In this document: in pieces, positions 3,142-24,578 of the stretch
Position numbering within the stretch: position 1 is the first letter of the stretch
Layout: the number at the start of each line of letters is the position of its first letter
From: an uncultured virus (IMG/VR IMGVR_UViG_3300031957_001236)
Lineage: Duplodnaviria > Heunggongvirae > Uroviricota > Caudoviricetes
Virus record (IMG/VR): IMGVR_UViG_3300031957_001236
Length of the DNA stretch: 64,000 nt
Direction: 5' to 3' (one strand)
The notes under the pieces: generated by a model
What the model saw: only the letters and a program-made list of their open reading frames with translations
Databases searched by the model: none
Told to the model about the DNA's origin: nothing
Program-made: the position numbers and the translations under genes

Positions 3142-4112
3142 AGTCCTATCTCCTCTCGTAGTGATTTAAACTTATCGTCGGTCATAAAACTCTCGTTGAA
3201 TGTCTTGGCTTGGAACTTAGGTTCGTCCTTGTATTGATACCAAGCACCAGACCTCTCTACTATTTTGTCCTTGACCATAAGATCAAGCACTCCATAGTGC
3301 GGAGTTAGACCTACATCGTATAGTAGTTCAAACTCCGCATCTTGGAAAGGTTTTGTGACCTTGTTCTTTACATTAGCTATCTTACCACGGATACCCACCA
3401 CGCTTTTATTATCGTCTTGTATCCTTTCGTTCTTAGGTGCAGAGGTCATAAAGTTAAGACCGAGGTAGTATTCAAGAGATTTACCACCCGCTGCTGGTGT
3501 TCTAGGATCACCGTACATCACACCTACCTTGTTGCGGATCTGGTTCACAATAACCAGAGCAACCTTATGTTCCCGTAGGAGTGGGTTAATCTTTCTCAAA
3601 CAGGCTCCTGTAACCTTTGCACGCATAGCACCAGTCATCTGGTGTGATTCGTAATCGGTCTTCTCCATCTCCTCACGGCTAGGTGATACAGCAATACTAT
3701 CGTAGCCAATAACGATTGGAGTATCCTTATCAATCTCTCTTATCTCTTTGATAAGAGCCTCCATACTTGCGAAGCAATCTTCTAGCGTAGGCGGTGCAGT
3801 ATAGATAAGGTTCTGTGGATCAATACCTAGCGTTGAGGCAAACTCTGAGTTGTAAGCATTCTCAGCGTCAATAAGAACTGTATGATACCCTTGCTTCTGT
3901 GCGTTCGCAAGAATGTGAGTCACGAATACAGTCTTGGCTGTAGATGCCTCACCGTGGAACTGGGTGATCATACCGATAGGGATTCCCTTTTGGTAGTCAC
4001 CAGAGCAGATCTTGTTGAGAGCGTAGGACCCTGTTGAGACGAACCCAAGGTCAAGGTTCTGATCCGAAAGCAGTCCCGCAGTTTTGAGGGACTTAATTAC
4101 ATCATCGCGCAT
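3138..4112 (-). CDS. recA: RecA/UvsX-family recombinase
   Basis: VSTGSYALN, P-loop GEASTAKT, IDAENA, YDSIA, NQIRNKVGVMYGDPRTPAAGGKSLEYY, VKNKV, SGAWYQY. Confidence 0.93.
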   Translation of the reverse strand: MRDDVIKSLKTAGLLSDQNLDLGFVSTGSYALNKICSGDYQKGIPIGMITQFHGEASTAKTVFVTHILANAQKQGYHTVLIDAENAYNSEFASTLGIDPQNLIYTAPPTLEDCFASMEALIKEIREIDKDTPIVIGYDSIAVSPSREEMEKTDYESHQMTGAMRAKVTGACLRKINPLLREHKVALVIVNQIRNKVGVMYGDPRTPAAGGKSLEYYLGLNFMTSAPKNERIQDDNKSVVGIRGKIANVKNKVTKPFQDAEFELLYDVGLTPHYGVLDLMVKDKIVERSGAWYQYKDEPKFQAKTFNESFMTDDKFKSLREEIGL

Positions 4113-6933: not shown

Positions 6934-7722
6934 TCATACCTCAAGCAAGTCTTTCCAAAGACCAAGTATCTCCTCGTTAGTAAGAACAGTAGGATTATTC
7001 TCAAGCCCCTCAAAGGGGATGCCTGCCTTCTTACACTCAGCTTCCACCAGACCGTAAGTTTCACGCTTGGACATGTGATATACCTTTCCTACTAGGTTAT
7101 ACATTTCGTTCTTGTCCTCCATCTGTCCTAGCATAACTACAAGACCGTTTTCTACATACTCCAGTAGCTCTTTCTCGAAATAGTCTTTGTCCGTAATAAT
7201 ACCAAACATCAGCACTCGTTCAAAGCCATCCTGCAACGCCTTCTCTACGGCCAAATGAGGCTGTTTGTGGGAATCCACGCTCCCTATTACGCCTGCGATC
7301 TTAGACCTGTCAGAGCCTTCCTCAGGAGCTTTCCAATCAACATCAGCTACCATAGGAGGGATGGTGACATACTCATGCTCGTAGTCTTGCCACTCCCTTT
7401 GGTGATCACTCACATATTGAATTACATCGTAGCATTGAGGATCAACCTCTTTTAGAGGAAACAGGTTGGTTTCATGTAGGCTAAGGATATGTTTCTTAAC
7501 ATCAAGCCCATCAGGGATCCTTAGGAAGTGACTGATGATTGTATCCTCTGGATCAACCTTTGCTTCCTGTAGCATCCCTGCCTTACACTTGTCCATATGG
7601 TAATCGTGTGGACCATAGAAAGTGCAGTCGTAACCGTTCTCGTTAAGAAGGTTGGTTAGGTCAATGTGATGTTGTGTAGATCCGCCTGGGGCAGACCATC
7701 CGCTTAGTATTTTAATTTTCAT
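6934..7722 (-). CDS. Glycosyltransferase, GT-B fold (GT4-like)
   Basis: SAPGGST N-terminus, IGSVDSHKQ, SKRETYGLVEAEC; start MKIKIL at 7722 follows a GAGGAG SD. Confidence 0.75.
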   Translation of the reverse strand: MKIKILSGWSAPGGSTQHHIDLTNLLNENGYDCTFYGPHDYHMDKCKAGMLQEAKVDPEDTIISHFLRIPDGLDVKKHILSLHETNLFPLKEVDPQCYDVIQYVSDHQREWQDYEHEYVTIPPMVADVDWKAPEEGSDRSKIAGVIGSVDSHKQPHLAVEKALQDGFERVLMFGIITDKDYFEKELLEYVENGLVVMLGQMEDKNEMYNLVGKVYHMSKRETYGLVEAECKKAGIPFEGLENNPTVLTNEEILGLWKDLLEV

Positions 7723-8881
7723 TCTTAATCTCCTCAAGATTTAGTATCTGTCTGTAAAGGTCTAGCCTAAACTTGACAACTTTGTTGATATCAAAGAACT
7801 CGTCAGTAACCTGCTTGAGGTTATTACCCATTTCCTCTCTACCTTTCTTATCCTTGATCATCTTACTCATAACCCTAACCCACTCAGACTTAGGATTAGA
7901 TGGATCAATAAGATATCCTGTCTCACCGTTGATGATAGTCTCATCATAGCATCCACAGTTTGTAGCTACAAGAGGAATCGCATACCTACCGCACTCAGCT
8001 ACTTTGATCTCACTCTTACTATCATTGAAGTTGTTGAACTCAAGAGGAGCGATAGCCAGATCCATGTGAGTGTAGAACTGTCCGTACCTATCAGGTCCTT
8101 GTGCTGGGTGAACTGTGCTATTGCGTCTGCCCTTCATGAAGCCGAACAGCATACGCTCGTAGTTGTCCCATACATCCTGCTGCCAGTCCTTACCTGTCTC
8201 AGGGTTGACTGGAGGTCTACCGAAGAAGTTCCAGTGAACTCGCTCTCTTCCTGCCTTTTGATTAACGAGAGCAGGAACACCTACGAACTGCTTAAGGTCC
8301 TGCTCATGGTGGATTCCCCCTACCCAGCCTACTCTACATAAGTTCTTAGGAACAACTCTGGGCATGTTCCAGCAAGGTAGGTCATAGTCGATAGCATTCT
8401 TTATAACTGTTAGCGTAGTGTTAGGACCGCAGAAAGGAAGAACTCTCTCTGCGAACTTACGCTGAGTTACTGATACAATATCGGAGTTATTATAGATGAA
8501 CTTAGTTATATCACTAAGACCTTTATCTTTGTAAACACCGTGTAGTCTGTGTCCCTCGTAAACTTCTGTGAGAAGATCGTCAGTATCGTAATGCATGATC
8601 TTACCAAACTCTTTGGCCTTACCTACGATACGAGCAGTGTAAGGTCCACCGAAGTTACTAAGGTTCTGAGTGAACACGATGTCGGCCCACTTCATATCCT
8701 CGTACTCCCAGTCTGGTTGCCATTGACCAGTCTTCTCGTCAATACCTAGAGGGTTCTTGTTGAACTTAACCTCTACCTCTTCAGGGAACTTTTGTTGAAG
8801 CTTTTGGAAAGGGCTCCAAGCTCTATAATACGCACATCCGCCATCATTAGCGGGAACAACAAGTATCTTTAGTTTACTCAT
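7712..8881 (-). CDS. Glycosyltransferase, GT-B fold
   Basis: GGCAYYR, YDTDD, VGWVGGIHH, DLAIAPLEFNNFNDSKSEIKVAE, INGETGYLI; start probably 8881 (track gives 8926). Confidence 0.85.
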   Translation of the reverse strand: MSKLKILVVPANDGGCAYYRAWSPFQKLQQKFPEEVEVKFNKNPLGIDEKTGQWQPDWEYEDMKWADIVFTQNLSNFGGPYTARIVGKAKEFGKIMHYDTDDLLTEVYEGHRLHGVYKDKGLSDITKFIYNNSDIVSVTQRKFAERVLPFCGPNTTLTVIKNAIDYDLPCWNMPRVVPKNLCRVGWVGGIHHEQDLKQFVGVPALVNQKAGRERVHWNFFGRPPVNPETGKDWQQDVWDNYERMLFGFMKGRRNSTVHPAQGPDRYGQFYTHMDLAIAPLEFNNFNDSKSEIKVAECGRYAIPLVATNCGCYDETIINGETGYLIDPSNPKSEWVRVMSKMIKDKKGREEMGNNLKQVTDEFFDINKVVKFRLDLYRQILNLEEIKNEN

Positions 8882-8883
8882 AA

Positions 8884-8914
8884 TAAGAAGAGAGGTGGCT
8901 TTCACCACCTCTCT
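8884..8914 (-). terminator. Stem-loop with GAAA loop; terminator-like
   Basis: Minus strand AGAGAGGTGG-TGAAAG-CCACCTCTCT then TCTTATT; 10-bp perfect stem (8889-8898/8905-8914). Confidence 0.6.
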
Positions 8915-8921
8915 ATTATAG

Positions 8922-9057
8922 TGCAAGTCTGAGTTTTTTAAAGCGCCCGTCTAACGCTTTTTTCGAGTTTCTAGACTGTCTACTTCGCTGCCCGACAGGA
9001 TCCCCTAGAACACTCTAGTAGGATCACCTCCTTCGTCGGGATTGGCTCAGACAGCAT
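8922..9057 (-). ncRNA. Candidate structured ncRNA containing AAGGAGGTGATCC
   Basis: Nested complementary segments GTCTGAG/CTCAGAC, CCCGAC/GTCGGG, GATCC/GGATC, CTAG/CTAG and AAAGCG/CGCTTT in one of the largest intergenic gaps; no family recognised. Confidence 0.45.
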
Positions 9058-9062
9058 CAACA

Positions 9063-9620
9063 TCATGCAACAGGTTCTTCGGGTACTTCTTCGTACTCGT
9101 ACTCAGAATCATCTTCAGCAGCAATCTTAGATGCCTCAGATGAGTGTGATAGGCCAAGACCAGCACCAATAGCTTTTACAGTGCCCACAAGATCAACAGA
9201 GGTGTCTCCTTTGTGAGGTACAAGAGCTTTGGCTGCCTTGACATAATGCTTGCGCTTACGCTGAGAGAAGAGTGTGACAACACCTTCCCATGCAGCAAGG
9301 CCAGGGAGGAAGGTACTAGCAATACCAAACCCTGCGTCGATCATGGCACCGAGATCCTCACCGCTAGGAGCAGCAGGAATATAAGCAGCATCTTCTTTAA
9401 GTTGCTCCTTATCTGCCATTACGACAGTTGTGCCTTCAGGAACTTTAGCCTTGATCTCCTCAGGAAGCTGCTCCCATGGGATGACAGCACCTTGTTGACC
9501 TTCGGCAAGTTGATCAGCGGTGGTAAAGACAGTACCCTCGCCTAGGAATTCCTCAAGCATAGCGCAGGATGTAACACCGAACGCTAGGACTGAGGCTGCG
9601 ATTACATTGATTAGTTTCAT
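9063..9620 (-). CDS. Putative lipoprotein/membrane protein
   Basis: Signal peptide with lipobox MKLINVIAASVLAFGVTS-C; second hydrophobic segment followed by QRKRKH; acidic tail. Confidence 0.7.
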   Translation of the reverse strand: MKLINVIAASVLAFGVTSCAMLEEFLGEGTVFTTADQLAEGQQGAVIPWEQLPEEIKAKVPEGTTVVMADKEQLKEDAAYIPAAPSGEDLGAMIDAGFGIASTFLPGLAAWEGVVTLFSQRKRKHYVKAAKALVPHKGDTSVDLVGTVKAIGAGLGLSHSSEASKIAAEDDSEYEYEEVPEEPVA

Positions 9621-10390
9621 GACAATAGCCTCTTAGTAAAATCATCATCGGAACCCGCATCCGAATCATCTTCTTGAAGAGTGCGTTCCCGTGGCTGTAG
9701 TTCAGGCCGCAGGTTGAGAACTGCCTCTTTCACATCATCGTACTCTTCAAGCTTCACAAGGGAGTGAATATCGTGAAGAGACTCCATCACCTCTGAGATC
9801 ATCTTCTTGCTGCCAAGCGGAGTTGCCTTAGGACGGAACATGGATTGATCGTACTTGGGCCATTGACCTTCCTTCTTCATGTGAAGCTTGAAGTCGTGAC
9901 CAATCTCGGTATCAAGGATACCGTTCTCAGACTGCTCGAAAAGATCAGCGTAGTCAGGATCCATCATGGTCTCGACAATCTTCTGGAACAGGATAACGCC
10001 AATGGAGAAGATCTTGACCTCCTCGTTCTCACGATCATAGGCGTTCAGGTAGTAGCGAGCACGGGGCTTGATCTGGCGAGCAAGATCCTCGTCCTCCTTG
10101 GAACCAGTCTTCCACAGGGCGTAGTAGAGATCGCACAGAGGGCACTTCTCTCCATGCACCTTGCGGCAGTGTACATTCTTCACCGAACCGTCAGGCTGAG
10201 GGACACGGTGGATCTTAGTCTCTGCATAGAAGTTCTTGTCAGAATCAGCAGAGGCAGGAAGGATACGAAGATAAGCCTCGCCCTCCTTTACTTGGTAGAA
10301 CTTGTTCAGGAAGTCCTGATCTCCACCAGCGGCTTTAGGGTTGGTAAGTTGTTGGTGCTTCTGACGAAGCGCGTTTAGGTCAATAGCCAT
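9617..10390 (-). CDS. Single-stranded DNA-binding protein, T4 gp32-like
   Basis: LRILP, Zn motif HCRKVHGEKCPLC, GHDFKL...WPKYDQSMF, acidic C-terminus; next to UvsY-like and helicase genes. Confidence 0.85.
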   Translation of the reverse strand: MAIDLNALRQKHQQLTNPKAAGGDQDFLNKFYQVKEGEAYLRILPASADSDKNFYAETKIHRVPQPDGSVKNVHCRKVHGEKCPLCDLYYALWKTGSKEDEDLARQIKPRARYYLNAYDRENEEVKIFSIGVILFQKIVETMMDPDYADLFEQSENGILDTEIGHDFKLHMKKEGQWPKYDQSMFRPKATPLGSKKMISEVMESLHDIHSLVKLEEYDDVKEAVLNLRPELQPRERTLQEDDSDAGSDDDFTKRLLS

Positions 10391-16506: not shown

Positions 16507-18411
16507 TCAGCCGCACTCTCCATCTCCTCCGAGGGTACAGGCTGCTCCGTCTGCGGTTCCAACGGCGTTTTGTTGTCCCATGTATCGTTCGACATTTTCT
16601 CTAGTTAGTGGTATTGCTTGTAGTGGTTCGTTACCTTTTGAGCCCGCTCTATATATAGTCATTCCTTTCAGGTATGGCATATAGTTCACGGCATCTTCGA
16701 TCATAGTAGCAGGATCAAAGGTCTCTGGCAAGTTTATTGTCTTGCTAATGCAGGAGTCTATGAAGCGTTGGATGGTTGCCTGGACAGCCATGTGCTCCTC
16801 AGGAGTGATATCGTAAGCACCTACAAATGCGTGGAGTTCCTTTCCTGCATCGAAATACTCCTGGAAAAGAGGGTCTGCGACGAACTGCTCTTTCCAGACA
16901 TTACCTTGACGCCATCTGCGATTATACATGGCAGAGAAAATAGGCTCAATCCCGCTGCTGACGCCCATAAGCATTGATATAGTTCCAGTTGGGGGAATAG
17001 TAAGCATAACAGCGTTACGAATACCATACTTACGGATGTAATGACGAATCCGAATAGGAAGTGTTTTAGCAAAATCTTCACTTAGGTACTTTTCTCTATC
17101 AAATGCAGGGAATGGTGCCTTGTCCCTCGCTAGATATATACTTGCCTTGTAAGCCTCGTCTCTAATTGTAGCGAACAGTCTTTCTAGGAACTCTAGACTC
17201 TTCTCACTACCATAACGAATGCCTAGCTTGATGAACATGTGGTGAAGACCCATGACACCAAGACCAACACGACGAGATCTTTCACCTACTTCCTTACACT
17301 CAGGAGTGGGGAAGTGGTTGACGGTAAGAACATTATCTAGGAAACGAATACCAGTTCTCACAGTACGGGCTAGGCGTTTCCAATCTACATCGGACCCATC
17401 TTCCAAGCACATGTTAGCAAGATTAACATTCCCAAGGCAACAGTTGCCATAAGAAGGGAGACTAATCTCACCACAGGGATTAGTGGATGCGAGTTCCTCG
17501 AAATACGATACATTGGTGAAAGAGTTTGCTAGATCAATATTATATACGCCAGGGTCACCTGACTCAACAGCATTTGTCCAGATTCTTTCCCAGAGTTTAC
17601 GAGCAGAGATATCTGCCTGACCGACCAGTTCAAAAGTTTCAGTCCAGTCAGCACGATGGAAGTTCTCTGCACGACCGATAGCATCGTCAGCATCAAGGGC
17701 AATCACCTCTAGCTCACGCTCCTCACCCTTGCTGTTGGTAGCACGCAGGACGAAGTTATGATACTCCTTGTTGCCATAGGTGAAGTACCAAGGCTCGTCG
17801 TTTTGCACAGCCTCAATGAACCTGTTGGTAATAGCAACAGAGATATTGAAGTTGTTAAGCTGACCCTGATCTAGCTTGACAGTAAGGAAATCTAGTAGGT
17901 CTGGGTGAGTGACATTAAGAATACCCATAAGAGCCGTGCGACGGTTCTTACCAGACTTGACATGCTCTCCTACCTCATTGATCATCTTGAGGACAGAGAC
18001 GCTGCCAGGAGCAGAGTTCTTTACATTGCCAATGTCATCGCCTTGAGGACGAATCTTAGATACATTAAAACCAATACCACCACCAGCACATGAAATCTTG
18101 TACATGTCCTGAATAGTTTTTCCAATGCTATCGACGCTATCCTCAGGAATGATGACATAACAGTTTAGTAGATTATGCTTGCCAGCATTTCGTCCAGAAC
18201 CATAAATAATGCGACCCCCAGGAACAAAATCGCCGCTAGAAATAGCATCATAAAACCATCCCTCAACTCTTTCTTTATCCTCATCGGGTTCTGCTCCTGC
18301 TACGGTTCTAGCAATTGCTTTTGCTCGCTGTCGCCACTCCTTCTCACCTGGGTAAGCGTAGCGGCTCATAAAGATTTCTTGTCCTAAACTATTTAGCTTG
18401 GCGATGGTCAT
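16507..18411 (-). CDS. nrdJ: Class II (adenosylcobalamin-dependent) ribonucleotide reductase
   Basis: PGGRI, LLNCYV, GGGIG, RRTALM, NNFNISV, TNPCGEISL...CCLG, RRVGLGVMG, TIPPTGTIS, ISKTINLP; C-terminal Cys pair; no beta subunit nearby. Confidence 0.88.
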   Translation of the reverse strand: MTIAKLNSLGQEIFMSRYAYPGEKEWRQRAKAIARTVAGAEPDEDKERVEGWFYDAISSGDFVPGGRIIYGSGRNAGKHNLLNCYVIIPEDSVDSIGKTIQDMYKISCAGGGIGFNVSKIRPQGDDIGNVKNSAPGSVSVLKMINEVGEHVKSGKNRRTALMGILNVTHPDLLDFLTVKLDQGQLNNFNISVAITNRFIEAVQNDEPWYFTYGNKEYHNFVLRATNSKGEERELEVIALDADDAIGRAENFHRADWTETFELVGQADISARKLWERIWTNAVESGDPGVYNIDLANSFTNVSYFEELASTNPCGEISLPSYGNCCLGNVNLANMCLEDGSDVDWKRLARTVRTGIRFLDNVLTVNHFPTPECKEVGERSRRVGLGVMGLHHMFIKLGIRYGSEKSLEFLERLFATIRDEAYKASIYLARDKAPFPAFDREKYLSEDFAKTLPIRIRHYIRKYGIRNAVMLTIPPTGTISMLMGVSSGIEPIFSAMYNRRWRQGNVWKEQFVADPLFQEYFDAGKELHAFVGAYDITPEEHMAVQATIQRFIDSCISKTINLPETFDPATMIEDAVNYMPYLKGMTIYRAGSKGNEPLQAIPLTRENVERYMGQQNAVGTADGAACTLGGDGECG

Positions 18412-20952: not shown

Positions 20953-21617
20953 ACTAATGCTCTCCAGGCGACTGGGAACAGTTCTGACATGATATCGTCA
21001 ATGGCAAATGCGTAGTGTTGGGTTTCCTCTTGTGCGTTGTTGTCACTACGCTGTAACGCAACGCGAGCAAATGATGCAAGGGATCCAGTCCAGTACCATT
21101 CTGTGTACATGCACTGTGGTAGGATACCCCTTGCAATCTCAGGGGCAAGCCCCTCTATAATAGATACATCGTATGCGTCTCTAGCAAGATTGACAGCCTG
21201 CTTGTAAATGTCGTAGACTCTCTCCTTGCCTTCAATCTCCTTATCACCTGAGCCCTGCTTGATGCTCTTGTCAGGACGCTCACGCCAGTAATTAGGAGTG
21301 TAGAAATCAGGTTCAAAATCAACATAACGACGCGAGATCTCGTTTTCTACCATGCCTACCTTATGCTTGAAGAGTTGAGTCCTCACAAAGATCGGCGCTT
21401 TTATGTGAAATTGAACCTGAGGATGGGCGAATGGGGTCCAATGGTTATGCTTCGCAAGATAGTTGATGAGCTTCTCATCTTTCTCCGTTAGTTCCTTGCT
21501 CATCTTACTGAACGAAACTCGCGCAGCATTAACCACCGTAAGATCAGACCCCATCCAATCTATAAGACGGACGAAGCCGTGATCCAAACACTCAACAGTA
21601 TAATTTTTATCAATCAT
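20949..21617 (-). CDS. thyX: Flavin-dependent thymidylate synthase
   Basis: VVNAARVSF, HWTPFAH, APIFVRTQLFKH...NEISRRY, APEIARGILPQ, AQEE. Confidence 0.95.
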   Translation of the reverse strand: MIDKNYTVECLDHGFVRLIDWMGSDLTVVNAARVSFSKMSKELTEKDEKLINYLAKHNHWTPFAHPQVQFHIKAPIFVRTQLFKHKVGMVENEISRRYVDFEPDFYTPNYWRERPDKSIKQGSGDKEIEGKERVYDIYKQAVNLARDAYDVSIIEGLAPEIARGILPQCMYTEWYWTGSLASFARVALQRSDNNAQEETQHYAFAIDDIMSELFPVAWRALV

Positions 21618-22722
21618 TAAAATACTCCAATAGTTCTGTCAGGTTTTGGACGGCTCCGTCCTTGTAATGAACCTCTTGACCATCGCCAAATGAACGACCT
21701 ACTTCAGCGTCGATCTTGAGGGGTACTTCAAAGTGGATGTTGAAATCCTTGCGGAGAGTAGGCGTCTCCACCAACTCATTATAGCACACTTCTAGGCACT
21801 CTTGCAAAGAATTCTTCGGGCATGTTATCTCAAGTGAGTCGTGGACAGTAGATACAATCTTAGCTCCCGTTGCTGGTAGAGATTGGCTAAGTCCCTTGAT
21901 GCCACAAAGGATAATGTCTGATGCCGCTGACTGGATAGTAAAGTTGAGACCTTGGCGTAGAGCCCTGCGAACAATCTTGTCATCCTTAGACCTGACATTA
22001 GGTAGTCTTCGCTTGCGTCCGAAGATAGAAGTGATGTAACCGTCCTCCCTGATCATCTCATAGGTATTGTTGATATACGATCCGATACCAGGGAAGACCT
22101 CCATGTAAGTGTTGATGATATGCTCTGCTCGGTCTAGTGAAATTCTGTTATTGTTAGCGAGCGTGAAAGCAGTACCACCATATACGATGAGGAAGGAGGT
22201 TGCCTTAGCAATTTGCCGTTCCTCTTTTAGCACCTTCTCTGCTGGCTTGTTGAACAAGAGTGAGGCAGAGTAGGTGTGTAGATCGACGCCATCTTTGAAT
22301 GCCTTACACATACGCTCATCCTCCGCTACATGCGCGAGAACCCTAAGTTCCATGCCTGCATAGTCGATAGTGATGAACGCCTGATCCTCAGGTGCTACAA
22401 AGATGCGTCGAATGTTATTATTAGTATCCCGAGGAAGCGTATGGAATGATACACCCATCGCCTTCTCAGCATTGTAGGAGCCGCAAGAGAGCCGACCTGT
22501 AACTGTGCCATCGAGCTTGTAGTCACAGTAGACCTTGTTACGACCATTGTATTCAATAGCCGTGTGTAAACCCCGAATGTAGGTCTTGTGAAGCTTCGCT
22601 GCCGCACGATAGTCTAGCAGCCCAGCGATCCACTCTCTTGCTTGTTCTAATTCCTCAGTTGAACGCTCTTGCAGAACACTACGAGCGGTCAGCTTTTCTT
22701 GATCTTCTCGTCTTCTTCGCAC
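21610..22722 (-). CDS. polA: Family A DNA polymerase, part 3 (thumb end, palm, fingers)
   Basis: LLDYRAAAKLHKTY, TVTGRLS, motif A DYAGMELRVLAH, motif B RQIAKATSFLIVYG, NFTIQSAASD, motif C VHDS; GTG start. Confidence 0.9.
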   Translation of the reverse strand: MRRRREDQEKLTARSVLQERSTEELEQAREWIAGLLDYRAAAKLHKTYIRGLHTAIEYNGRNKVYCDYKLDGTVTGRLSCGSYNAEKAMGVSFHTLPRDTNNNIRRIFVAPEDQAFITIDYAGMELRVLAHVAEDERMCKAFKDGVDLHTYSASLLFNKPAEKVLKEERQIAKATSFLIVYGGTAFTLANNNRISLDRAEHIINTYMEVFPGIGSYINNTYEMIREDGYITSIFGRKRRLPNVRSKDDKIVRRALRQGLNFTIQSAASDIILCGIKGLSQSLPATGAKIVSTVHDSLEITCPKNSLQECLEVCYNELVETPTLRKDFNIHFEVPLKIDAEVGRSFGDGQEVHYKDGAVQNLTELLEYFND

Positions 22723-23191
22723 GGTCGTTCAACTCATCTGTAATAAAGTCTAGTAGTTCGTCAAGGGTCGCCTTATCCGTTGATGGTTCACCCTTGCCTG
22801 TTCTCTTCGGAGGATATAGTAGGAAGCCCTGCTCGTCAGTATAAAGAATCTCTCTCAGATCCACAGTAGATGCGAAGTTAGCACCACGCTTCACCTGCTT
22901 GTACATAAGAAGTTCATCCTCCTTAGACATAGATTGTTTGTCCAAGCTCTTACCAACAGAACCTAGTTCCTCTGGTGCTACATGCAGACCTTCATACTCC
23001 ATCTCAGAGAATACAGGTAGCACAGGTGACAGAAGCTTCTCCATCACATGCCAGCAGCCTTCCTCTTGCAGTAGCTCTTCTAGCTTGTGGAAAAGTCGAA
23101 GAGTAAAGTGAGTATCCATAGCGTTGCCATGGAGACAATCACCCAGCGGAATATTAGCCCAATCAAAGTTCTTATCATTTACTGTTAGCAT
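22679..23191 (-). CDS. polA: Family A DNA polymerase, part 2 (ExoIII region plus start of thumb)
   Basis: HGNAMDT (ExoIII-like), FSEMEYEGL, NFASTVDLREILY, TGKGEPSTDKATLDEL. Confidence 0.85.
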   Translation of the reverse strand: MLTVNDKNFDWANIPLGDCLHGNAMDTHFTLRLFHKLEELLQEEGCWHVMEKLLSPVLPVFSEMEYEGLHVAPEELGSVGKSLDKQSMSKEDELLMYKQVKRGANFASTVDLREILYTDEQGFLLYPPKRTGKGEPSTDKATLDELLDFITDELNDRAKKTRRSRKADRS

Positions 23192-24227: not shown

Positions 24228-24578
24228 ATGAGTAGACATTACATAGACAACAAACGCTTCGAGGACTTAATAGTATTATACCTCCAAGATCGAAAAGCTC
24301 ACGAAGAAGAACTGTTTTCTATGTTCGACTTGCTTATCTCTAATGTCATGGGTGCATTCAACTTTGATGTTGATCCCGAAGACGCCAAGCAAGATTGTTT
24401 CGTATTAATATTGAAGACGCTCCAAAATTTCAATCCTGAAAAAGGGAGCGCCTTCAATTTCTTTACCACAGTTATTGTTAATAATCTAAAGCTGGTTTAC
24501 ACGAAAGATAAAAAGTACGCCGAGAAGATCAAGGCGTTTGAGGAACTGCAAGGGTATCGAGGCCCAACTCAGCCCTGA
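24228..24578 (+). CDS. Late-transcription sigma factor, T4 gp55-like (short)
   Basis: HYIDNKRF N-terminus; DAKQDC...NFNPEKGSAFNFFTTVIVN region-2-like motif. Confidence 0.75.
   Translation: MSRHYIDNKRFEDLIVLYLQDRKAHEEELFSMFDLLISNVMGAFNFDVDPEDAKQDCFVLILKTLQNFNPEKGSAFNFFTTVIVNNLKLVYTKDKKYAEKIKAFEELQGYRGPTQP

Follow-up and report, generated by a model that had tools for sequence, protein, structure and literature searches.

Two bacterial systems are the closest described counterparts of the phage locus reported here. The first is rreB, a small mRNA of Bradyrhizobiaceae with related rre genes (Hahn et al., PMC5711450). As described there, rreB exposes a 5' seed of its complementarity to 16S rRNA while the rest is paired, co-sediments with the 30S subunit and is weakly translated. 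Mutation of its GUG start to UAG leaves the RNA ribosome-bound and extends its half-life from 10 to 37 min, and a 14-nt version without the 5' extension is found mainly in the soluble fraction (PMC5711450). The purpose of such extended Shine-Dalgarno (SD) RNAs is left open in that description. The second system is STAB-SD, located in the 5' UTR of the Bacillus thuringiensis cry3A mRNA, which shields the downstream coding sequence from RNase J1 (PMC4113751). In S. aureus, pairing 3' of the canonical SD is described as fitting on the ribosome (PMC13009471).

A locus with features of both is present in an uncultured phage (IMG/VR IMGVR_UViG_3300031957_001236), of which a stretch of 64,000 nt, referred to as the window, was analysed. 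The phage is T4-like, with gp23, gp32, a late sigma factor and a family A-like DNA polymerase, but lacks a close cultured relative, as the closest cultured gp23 is only 29.9% identical. Alongside the T4-like morphogenesis genes stands the family A-like polymerase (21610-23191), which looks split into overlapping ORFs (21610-22722 and 22679-23191), as it does in the related genome G002. All carriers of the element belong to one group of uncultured aquatic phages; in a host search of 185,579 species genomes, neither the element pattern nor gp32 was matched.

The element lies on the minus strand in the 181-nt gap of a gene series that runs from a gp32-like ssDNA-binding protein (9617..10390; Pfam PF08804, E 1.8e-17) through a 185-aa lipoprotein-like gene (9063..9620; signal-peptide-like N-terminus and Cys19 by inspection) to a glycosyltransferase (7712..8881; PF00534). 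The lipoprotein-like protein is family-wide, with its gene immediately behind gp32; it has 242 relatives and matched no Pfam or PHROG family; the glycosyltransferase gene is swapped for a different gene in carriers L009 and L010. The whole structured element spans 8922..9056, and its core of ~105 nt (8940-9040) lies between the lipoprotein-like stop and an intrinsic terminator-like hairpin (8889..8914, minus strand). The sequence-only reading had noted this GAAA-loop hairpin as following the closing stem. The hairpin is present, but it is an ordinary terminator, and relatives lacking the element have a hairpin of different sequence at the same place. Between element and terminator is a TATAAT-like promoter box (8915..8920, minus strand) that recurs just ahead of many starts in the phage family.

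Plus-strand positions 9021-9033 read GGATCACCTCCTT, the sole perfect copy in the window, and the minus strand carries AAGGAGGUGAUCC, a 13-nt complement of the 16S 3' end by sequence match and predicted pairing, 29 nt behind the lipoprotein-like stop. The identity of the motif with the 16S 3' end agrees with the oligonucleotide table of PMC6943124 and the title of a cited Era paper. Position 9034 is G or A among relatives, either of which can pair with U, and the base after GAUCC breaks the match, so that the complement is 13 nt perfect, or 14 with G/A opposite U. An order-3 Markov model of window composition gives an expected 0.0075 copies of the exact 13-mer per window, and six matches with at most two mismatches are found against 1.69 expected. 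In a scan of some 250,000 windows this rarity is not decisive by itself, and phage DNA commonly contains the 12-mer. The only start within 25 nt downstream is that of GTG-TTC-TAG (9005..9013, minus strand), 13 nt after AGGAGG. Both the perfect complement and the absence of a real ORF at SD spacing, as first read from the sequence, are thus borne out, although a GUG at this distance may be weakly usable.

The distribution of the element is narrow. Among 58 viral loci with the lipoprotein-like gene, it is found in 10 and missing at the same site in 45; the other three end too early. In the lipoprotein tree the carriers group on a single branch, which holds 7 of 36 non-redundant rows and has support of 95/89, and a single gain is the simplest reading of this pattern. 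Scans of viral sequences with patterns that cover portions of the element gave no copy outside this clade among the matches listed: nine non-clade matches of one scan resembled coding-region matches, and six of these scored 13-14 bits with a covariance model, against 156 for the window. A metagenome scan with a pattern that omitted the SD returned carriers in 12 of 13 matches, all with the 13-mer intact. The covariance model, run on 46 sources, recovered only the window and G002 copies, one in each, and in cultured phages blastn with the element as query yielded short chance matches only.

Within the clade the core is nearly frozen. The six distinct cores vary at 11 of 106 columns, and divergent carriers differ by 0-7 substitutions per ~103 nt of core versus 30-64% of fourfold sites in the adjacent gene (Fisher p 2e-9 to 7e-17, the carrier pairs being non-independent and the core bounds picked from the alignment). 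Compared with L009, for example, the window has 0/101 core substitutions and 25/83 fourfold differences (p 2e-10); compared with L011, 3/101 and 37/80 (p 6e-13). Judged by this contrast, the core is under strong purifying selection. The 13-mer is no more invariant than the rest of the core (P=0.22), so SD-specific selection is not demonstrable within the element, and ~70 further invariant bases beyond the SD are unexplained by the SD alone. One carrier locus, L261:655-802, is a mosaic with an L009-type 5' flank and an L004-type core and 3' flank, which suggests recombination within the element.

The minus-strand RNA has a predicted minimum free energy (MFE) of -44.9 kcal/mol (z -2.20; 1 of 200 shuffles equally good), a moderate advantage over shuffled sequence. 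It is closed by an outer stem, P0 (9046-9052 with 8927-8933), that is preserved by differing sequences: in each of 11 variants, the flank duplex is equalled or beaten by only 1-18 of 300 shuffles. Hairpin H1 (8999..9025) pairs the GAUCC of the motif with a GGAUC inside the element that copies the 16S sequence, below an upper stem of CUAGA/UCUAG; H2 (8976..8998), a CUGUC/GACAG stem with a purine-rich loop, is intact in all six cores and grows from 5 to 7 bp through paired insertions on both strands in one subclade; and H3 (8940..8960), supported by fold and alignment, is invariant and includes two U-G pairs. The nested stems proposed from the sequence alone (CCCGAC/GTCGGG, GATCC/GGATC, CTAG/CTAG and GTCTGAG/CTCAGAC) are all part of the MFE structure, but CCCGAC/GTCGGG carries a C-A mismatch in three of the six cores and RNAalifold prefers its competitor, H2. 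Covariation is thin, with a double change in 1 of 31 RNAalifold pairs. The broader proposal that the minus strand carries a conserved 3' element, structured and non-coding, is nevertheless supported, and such an element could capture 30S subunits or protect the RNA.

These predictions allow for two states. In free RNA the GAUCC-GGAUC pairing has a probability of 0.85-0.99, and in the window core the first six bases of the motif are unpaired with probability 0.5-1.0 versus 0.0-0.3 for GAUCC. An invariant linker, CUAGAAACUC (8965..8974, minus strand), is complementary to the H1 loop and 3' strand, and could form an alternative long hairpin. Its duplex is worth -11.6 to -12.3 kcal/mol, equalled by 8-23 of 1000 shuffles, and the pair adjoining it is G-U, A-U, U-A or G/G across variants. 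The long hairpin lies 1.5-6 kcal/mol above the MFE, with a probability of at most 0.03 in free RNA. When the motif is forced open, it becomes the MFE in four of the six cores, but with full flanks only in the window variant (1 of 11), and the switch is accordingly put forward as a hypothesis. Opening the motif is predicted to cost 8-10 kcal/mol versus -23.0 gained by the duplex with the 13-nt tail, a net of -13 to -15 in all 11 variants.

Evidence on transcription comes from four RNA runs examined of 18 listed. In one, a 445-nt contig from a relative spans 8923-9352, covering the 3' half of the lipoprotein-like gene and the whole element and ending at the base of the closing stem, although such contigs carry neither strand nor true ends and DNA carry-over is possible. 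The other three contain gp32 or lipoprotein sequence only, leaving the element uncovered. The glycosyltransferase gene has no contig in the four runs, which contigs cannot turn into proof of absence. By joining gene and element, this contig weakly suggests that the lipoprotein transcript has the element as its 3' tail.

The reading that we consider best, with a probability of about 0.52, is that the element docks 30S subunits without productive initiation, either as part of the gp32-lipoprotein transcript, whose folded 3' tail it would be, or as a small RNA processed from this transcript; all readings that include 30S binding are, taken together, quite probable. In this model, the 16S tail would first seed on the exposed AAGGAG and displace the RNA's own GGAUC copy. 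The released strand would then zip with CUAGAAACUC into the long hairpin, which would start 5 nt beyond the duplex and sequester the only GUG, so that the subunit is held and little or no protein is started. Finally, and this is the weakest step, the bound subunit would have a local effect, protecting the RNA against decay in the manner of STAB-SD, and the outcome would be a stable ribosome-tethered RNA of about 130-150 nt. A role as a global shut-off device is less likely. To our knowledge, described phage control of host ribosomes works via proteins. A phage RNA that holds the 30S subunit by its anti-SD tail without initiating would, if the model is true, add an RNA route, and no description of such a phage RNA was found in the literature searched. 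One relevant catalogue (PMC10690425) mentions neither 16S nor Shine in its main text, and its readable supplements contain no match; the element may still be an unnamed candidate in its alignment archives or PDFs (mmc1-5).

An unlikely rival is that the RNA is abundant and acts in trans as a sponge that blocks the anti-SDs of many subunits and tilts translation towards leaderless phage mRNAs, in line with the idea, from the initial reading, that the element and leaderless mRNAs form a translation-takeover system. The very stable predicted duplex, the location of the element where an operon represented in RNA libraries ends and the TATA-like boxes near many phage starts are all compatible with this. 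However, under a crude first-ATG classification that scores boxes within 12 nt of the start, such boxes precede 12 of 59 window genes and, in carrier G002, 12 of 117; in G003, a 99%-complete relative in which the element is missing and no 16S-tail complement of 10 nt or more was found, they precede 16 of 115. As a non-carrier has as many of these starts, the leaderless-like programme is family-wide and independent of the element, and the proposed coupling is not supported. SD-like motifs also precede 26 of 59 window genes (45 of 117 in G002 and 52 of 115 in G003), with AAGGAG upstream of the major capsid gene, and the phage's SD-led genes would themselves suffer under a global anti-SD block. 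In addition, 20-fold overproduction of ribosome-binding rreB left growth unchanged, and its describers dispute simple sequestration (PMC5711450). As a separate matter, the near-palindromic TAT(A/T)ATA box found 3-8 nt before many ATGs (e.g., at 4112, 6295, 12965 and 24228 in the window, and also in G002 and G003) is likely a phage promoter yielding leaderless mRNAs. A late-sigma-like gene is found at 24228-24578 (PHROG 234, weak).

Complements without a start codon also occur in other phages. In JA11 (L329; MH389777 165,879-165,889) and Y3 (L326; KY984068 174,249-174,259), a start-less complement of 11-13 nt follows a stop codon at 0-9 nt, with a structured region and a terminator behind it, and has been retained although the flanks align poorly. 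The site is syntenic, close to a DNA polymerase III gene, and a predicted hairpin half-hides the complement; SNUABM_13 (L399) resembles this arrangement. In a second T4-like family (L330-L355), GGAGGTGATCC is found in 12 of 46 upstream regions, as a complement of 11-16 nt that follows a tiny membrane-protein-like gene and precedes what we take to be a cytidyltransferase-like gene. Nine of the 12 have an AUG behind the motif and a short ORF, in the manner of rreB, and three lack a start and sit in a hairpin loop, which suggests that the complement can persist without a reading frame. In 9NA (L398), Bas82 (L397) and AVIO78A (L400), a 14-nt complement lies in a hairpin within an unannotated gap downstream of the capsid gene region, at a distance of 150-230 nt from the annotated stop; 11 nt after AGGAGG, a UUG opens a 17-codon frame. 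Bas82 infects E. coli, and its complement (L397:895-925; PQ850612 about 17,890-17,910) makes the class accessible to experiment in a laboratory strain. More start-less AGGAGGTGATCC sites occur in intergenic structured contexts of other viral contigs (L283, L207, L269 and L286).

These elements resemble that of the window in being intergenic complements of 11-14 nt that are partly paired and mostly placed after a stop and before a terminator. Unlike it, some have an AUG or UUG mini-ORF, and neither profile nor covariance-model searches show any of them to be homologous to it. Because every query that found them contained the SD, they document recurrence, not enrichment. No description of these start-less extended-SD elements was found in the literature searched. 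It is conceivable, though doubtful, that switchable RNAs acting without protein have arisen repeatedly in unrelated phages, clamping the 16S tail and then refolding to prevent initiation, and that the window element is one of these, parking or titrating host 30S subunits during infection while its conserved downstream body contacts the ribosome further.

The recurrence of the complement after stop codons in unrelated phages also bears on whether the element might be a structured RNA that serves a different purpose (protein binding, catalysis or sensing), with the 16S match a coincidence or a mere stabiliser. Such a purpose would accommodate the unpaired linkers and loops, which are as invariant as the motif, and the burial of half of the motif within H1. 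Nor is AGGAGGTGATCC rare in phage DNA: of 130 distinct contexts among the matches listed in pattern scans, 77 are inside ORFs and 34 are ordinary SDs, with 12 start-less and 7 representing the window-type element. We regard this explanation as unlikely, since a motif so seldom expected by chance falls inside a 105-nt conserved intergenic element, its complement recurs elsewhere, and no Rfam family exceeds threshold. Rfam 15 gave no matches in the window, and the best scores in the element region are 18.5-19.3 bits against gathering thresholds of 56-102. Ribozyme, riboswitch, tmRNA, SRP and CRISPR-repeat identities were dropped because Rfam and ARAGORN gave nothing.

Alternatively, the element could be an ultra-short mRNA like rreB, in which weak initiation at GUG-UUC-UAG and the translation of two codons, as a means of controlling ribosome cycling or turnover, are the function. 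Its GUG-UUC-UAG is invariant in all 11 variants, an invariance that the surrounding bases match equally; rreB likewise pairs an extended SD with a GUG (PMC5711450), and the UUG frame of the 9NA/Bas82 analogue and the AUG of 9 of the 12 second-family members fit the same idea. What makes it quite improbable is the spacing of 13 nt from AGGAGG, versus 7 nt in rreB (PMC5711450), the predicted location of the GUG in the H1 loop, or in a paired region in the alternative state, and the lack of AUG, GUG or UUG soon after the motif in JA11, SNUABM_13 and L330-L332.

The remaining readings fare worse. The nested palindromes around CTAGA/TCTAG and the neighbouring gp32 and helicase genes would suit a DNA-level site (an origin, recombination site or protein-binding palindrome) in a replication gene cluster, but G-U-type variation, a remodelled closing stem, absence from 45 related loci and a single copy in both the window and G002 make this very unlikely. 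Still less probable is a plus-strand RNA that mimics the 16S tail, serving as an anti-SD decoy, as had been proposed, or as bait for tail-binding proteins such as Era. The plus strand folds about equally well (z -2.09), and the promoter-like box is nearly palindromic (TATTAT in L011), but the neighbouring genes and terminator are all on the minus strand, the two U-G pairs of H3 become mismatches on the plus strand, and all analogues examined are in SD orientation, some with AUG; no positive evidence for the decoy emerged. Hardly credible, finally, is that the 27-aa ORF (8980..9063, minus strand) offered as an alternative encodes a real peptide: it exists, is coupled by TGATG in the window and has third positions as the two variable sites of its first 13 shared codons, but in L002, whose lipoprotein is 99% identical, a single inserted nucleotide disrupts the TGATG frame, the L004, L009 and L011 types have no ATG, L011 has no upstream start in frame, the C-termini fall in two frames and synonymous sites are almost frozen, so that start, frame and stop are not conserved, no codon-type substitution pattern is seen and the ORF is rejected as a gene.

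Docking of the 30S subunit without initiation thus remains the preferred reading, and it places the element closest to rreB. As far as rreB is described in PMC5711450, both carry extended complementarity to the 16S 3' end that reaches 5' past AGGAGG, both expose the 5' seed and hold the remainder in a hairpin (for the element, by predicted pairing in six cores), and both are about 140-165 nt long with a terminator at the end and a GUG downstream. The differences are equally clear. Complementarity to 16S is 17 nt in rreB and at least 16 nt in rre genes, versus 13-14 nt in the element. The bacterial rreB has its own promoter, whereas the element is in the 3' UTR of a phage operon. The GUG of rreB, 7 nt from AGGAGG, opens a conserved 14-aa peptide, and rre genes in general combine this spacing with a conserved ORF of 14-18 aa; in all 11 variants of the element this combination is absent, and the more distant GUG opens two codons, with no conserved peptide and no sequence similarity to rreB beyond the motif.

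The Caulobacter sRNA CC2171 (Rfam RF01867) has a consensus that opens with the same extended SD, but its GUG follows 1 nt after GAUCC, and the CC2171 model does not match the element. A sub-threshold CC2171 match (52 bits, E 1.8e-08) was obtained on a different viral contig, at L101:29-197; with an extended SD and a GUG at its start, this sequence is, judged by these features, an rre-like RNA on a viral contig.

STAB-SD, as described in PMC4113751, is an SD-like sequence from which translation is not initiated and which is proposed to bind the 30S subunit and protect the RNA; the element likewise has no start at initiation distance from its SD-like sequence. The two differ in position and context: STAB-SD is in a 5' UTR and protects the coding sequence downstream, whereas the element is behind a stop codon, right before a terminator-like hairpin, and within a conserved structure of ~100 nt. 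By analogy, the element most likely works like rreB or STAB-SD while belonging to neither family, and it could help to explain why extended-SD RNAs such as rreB exist.
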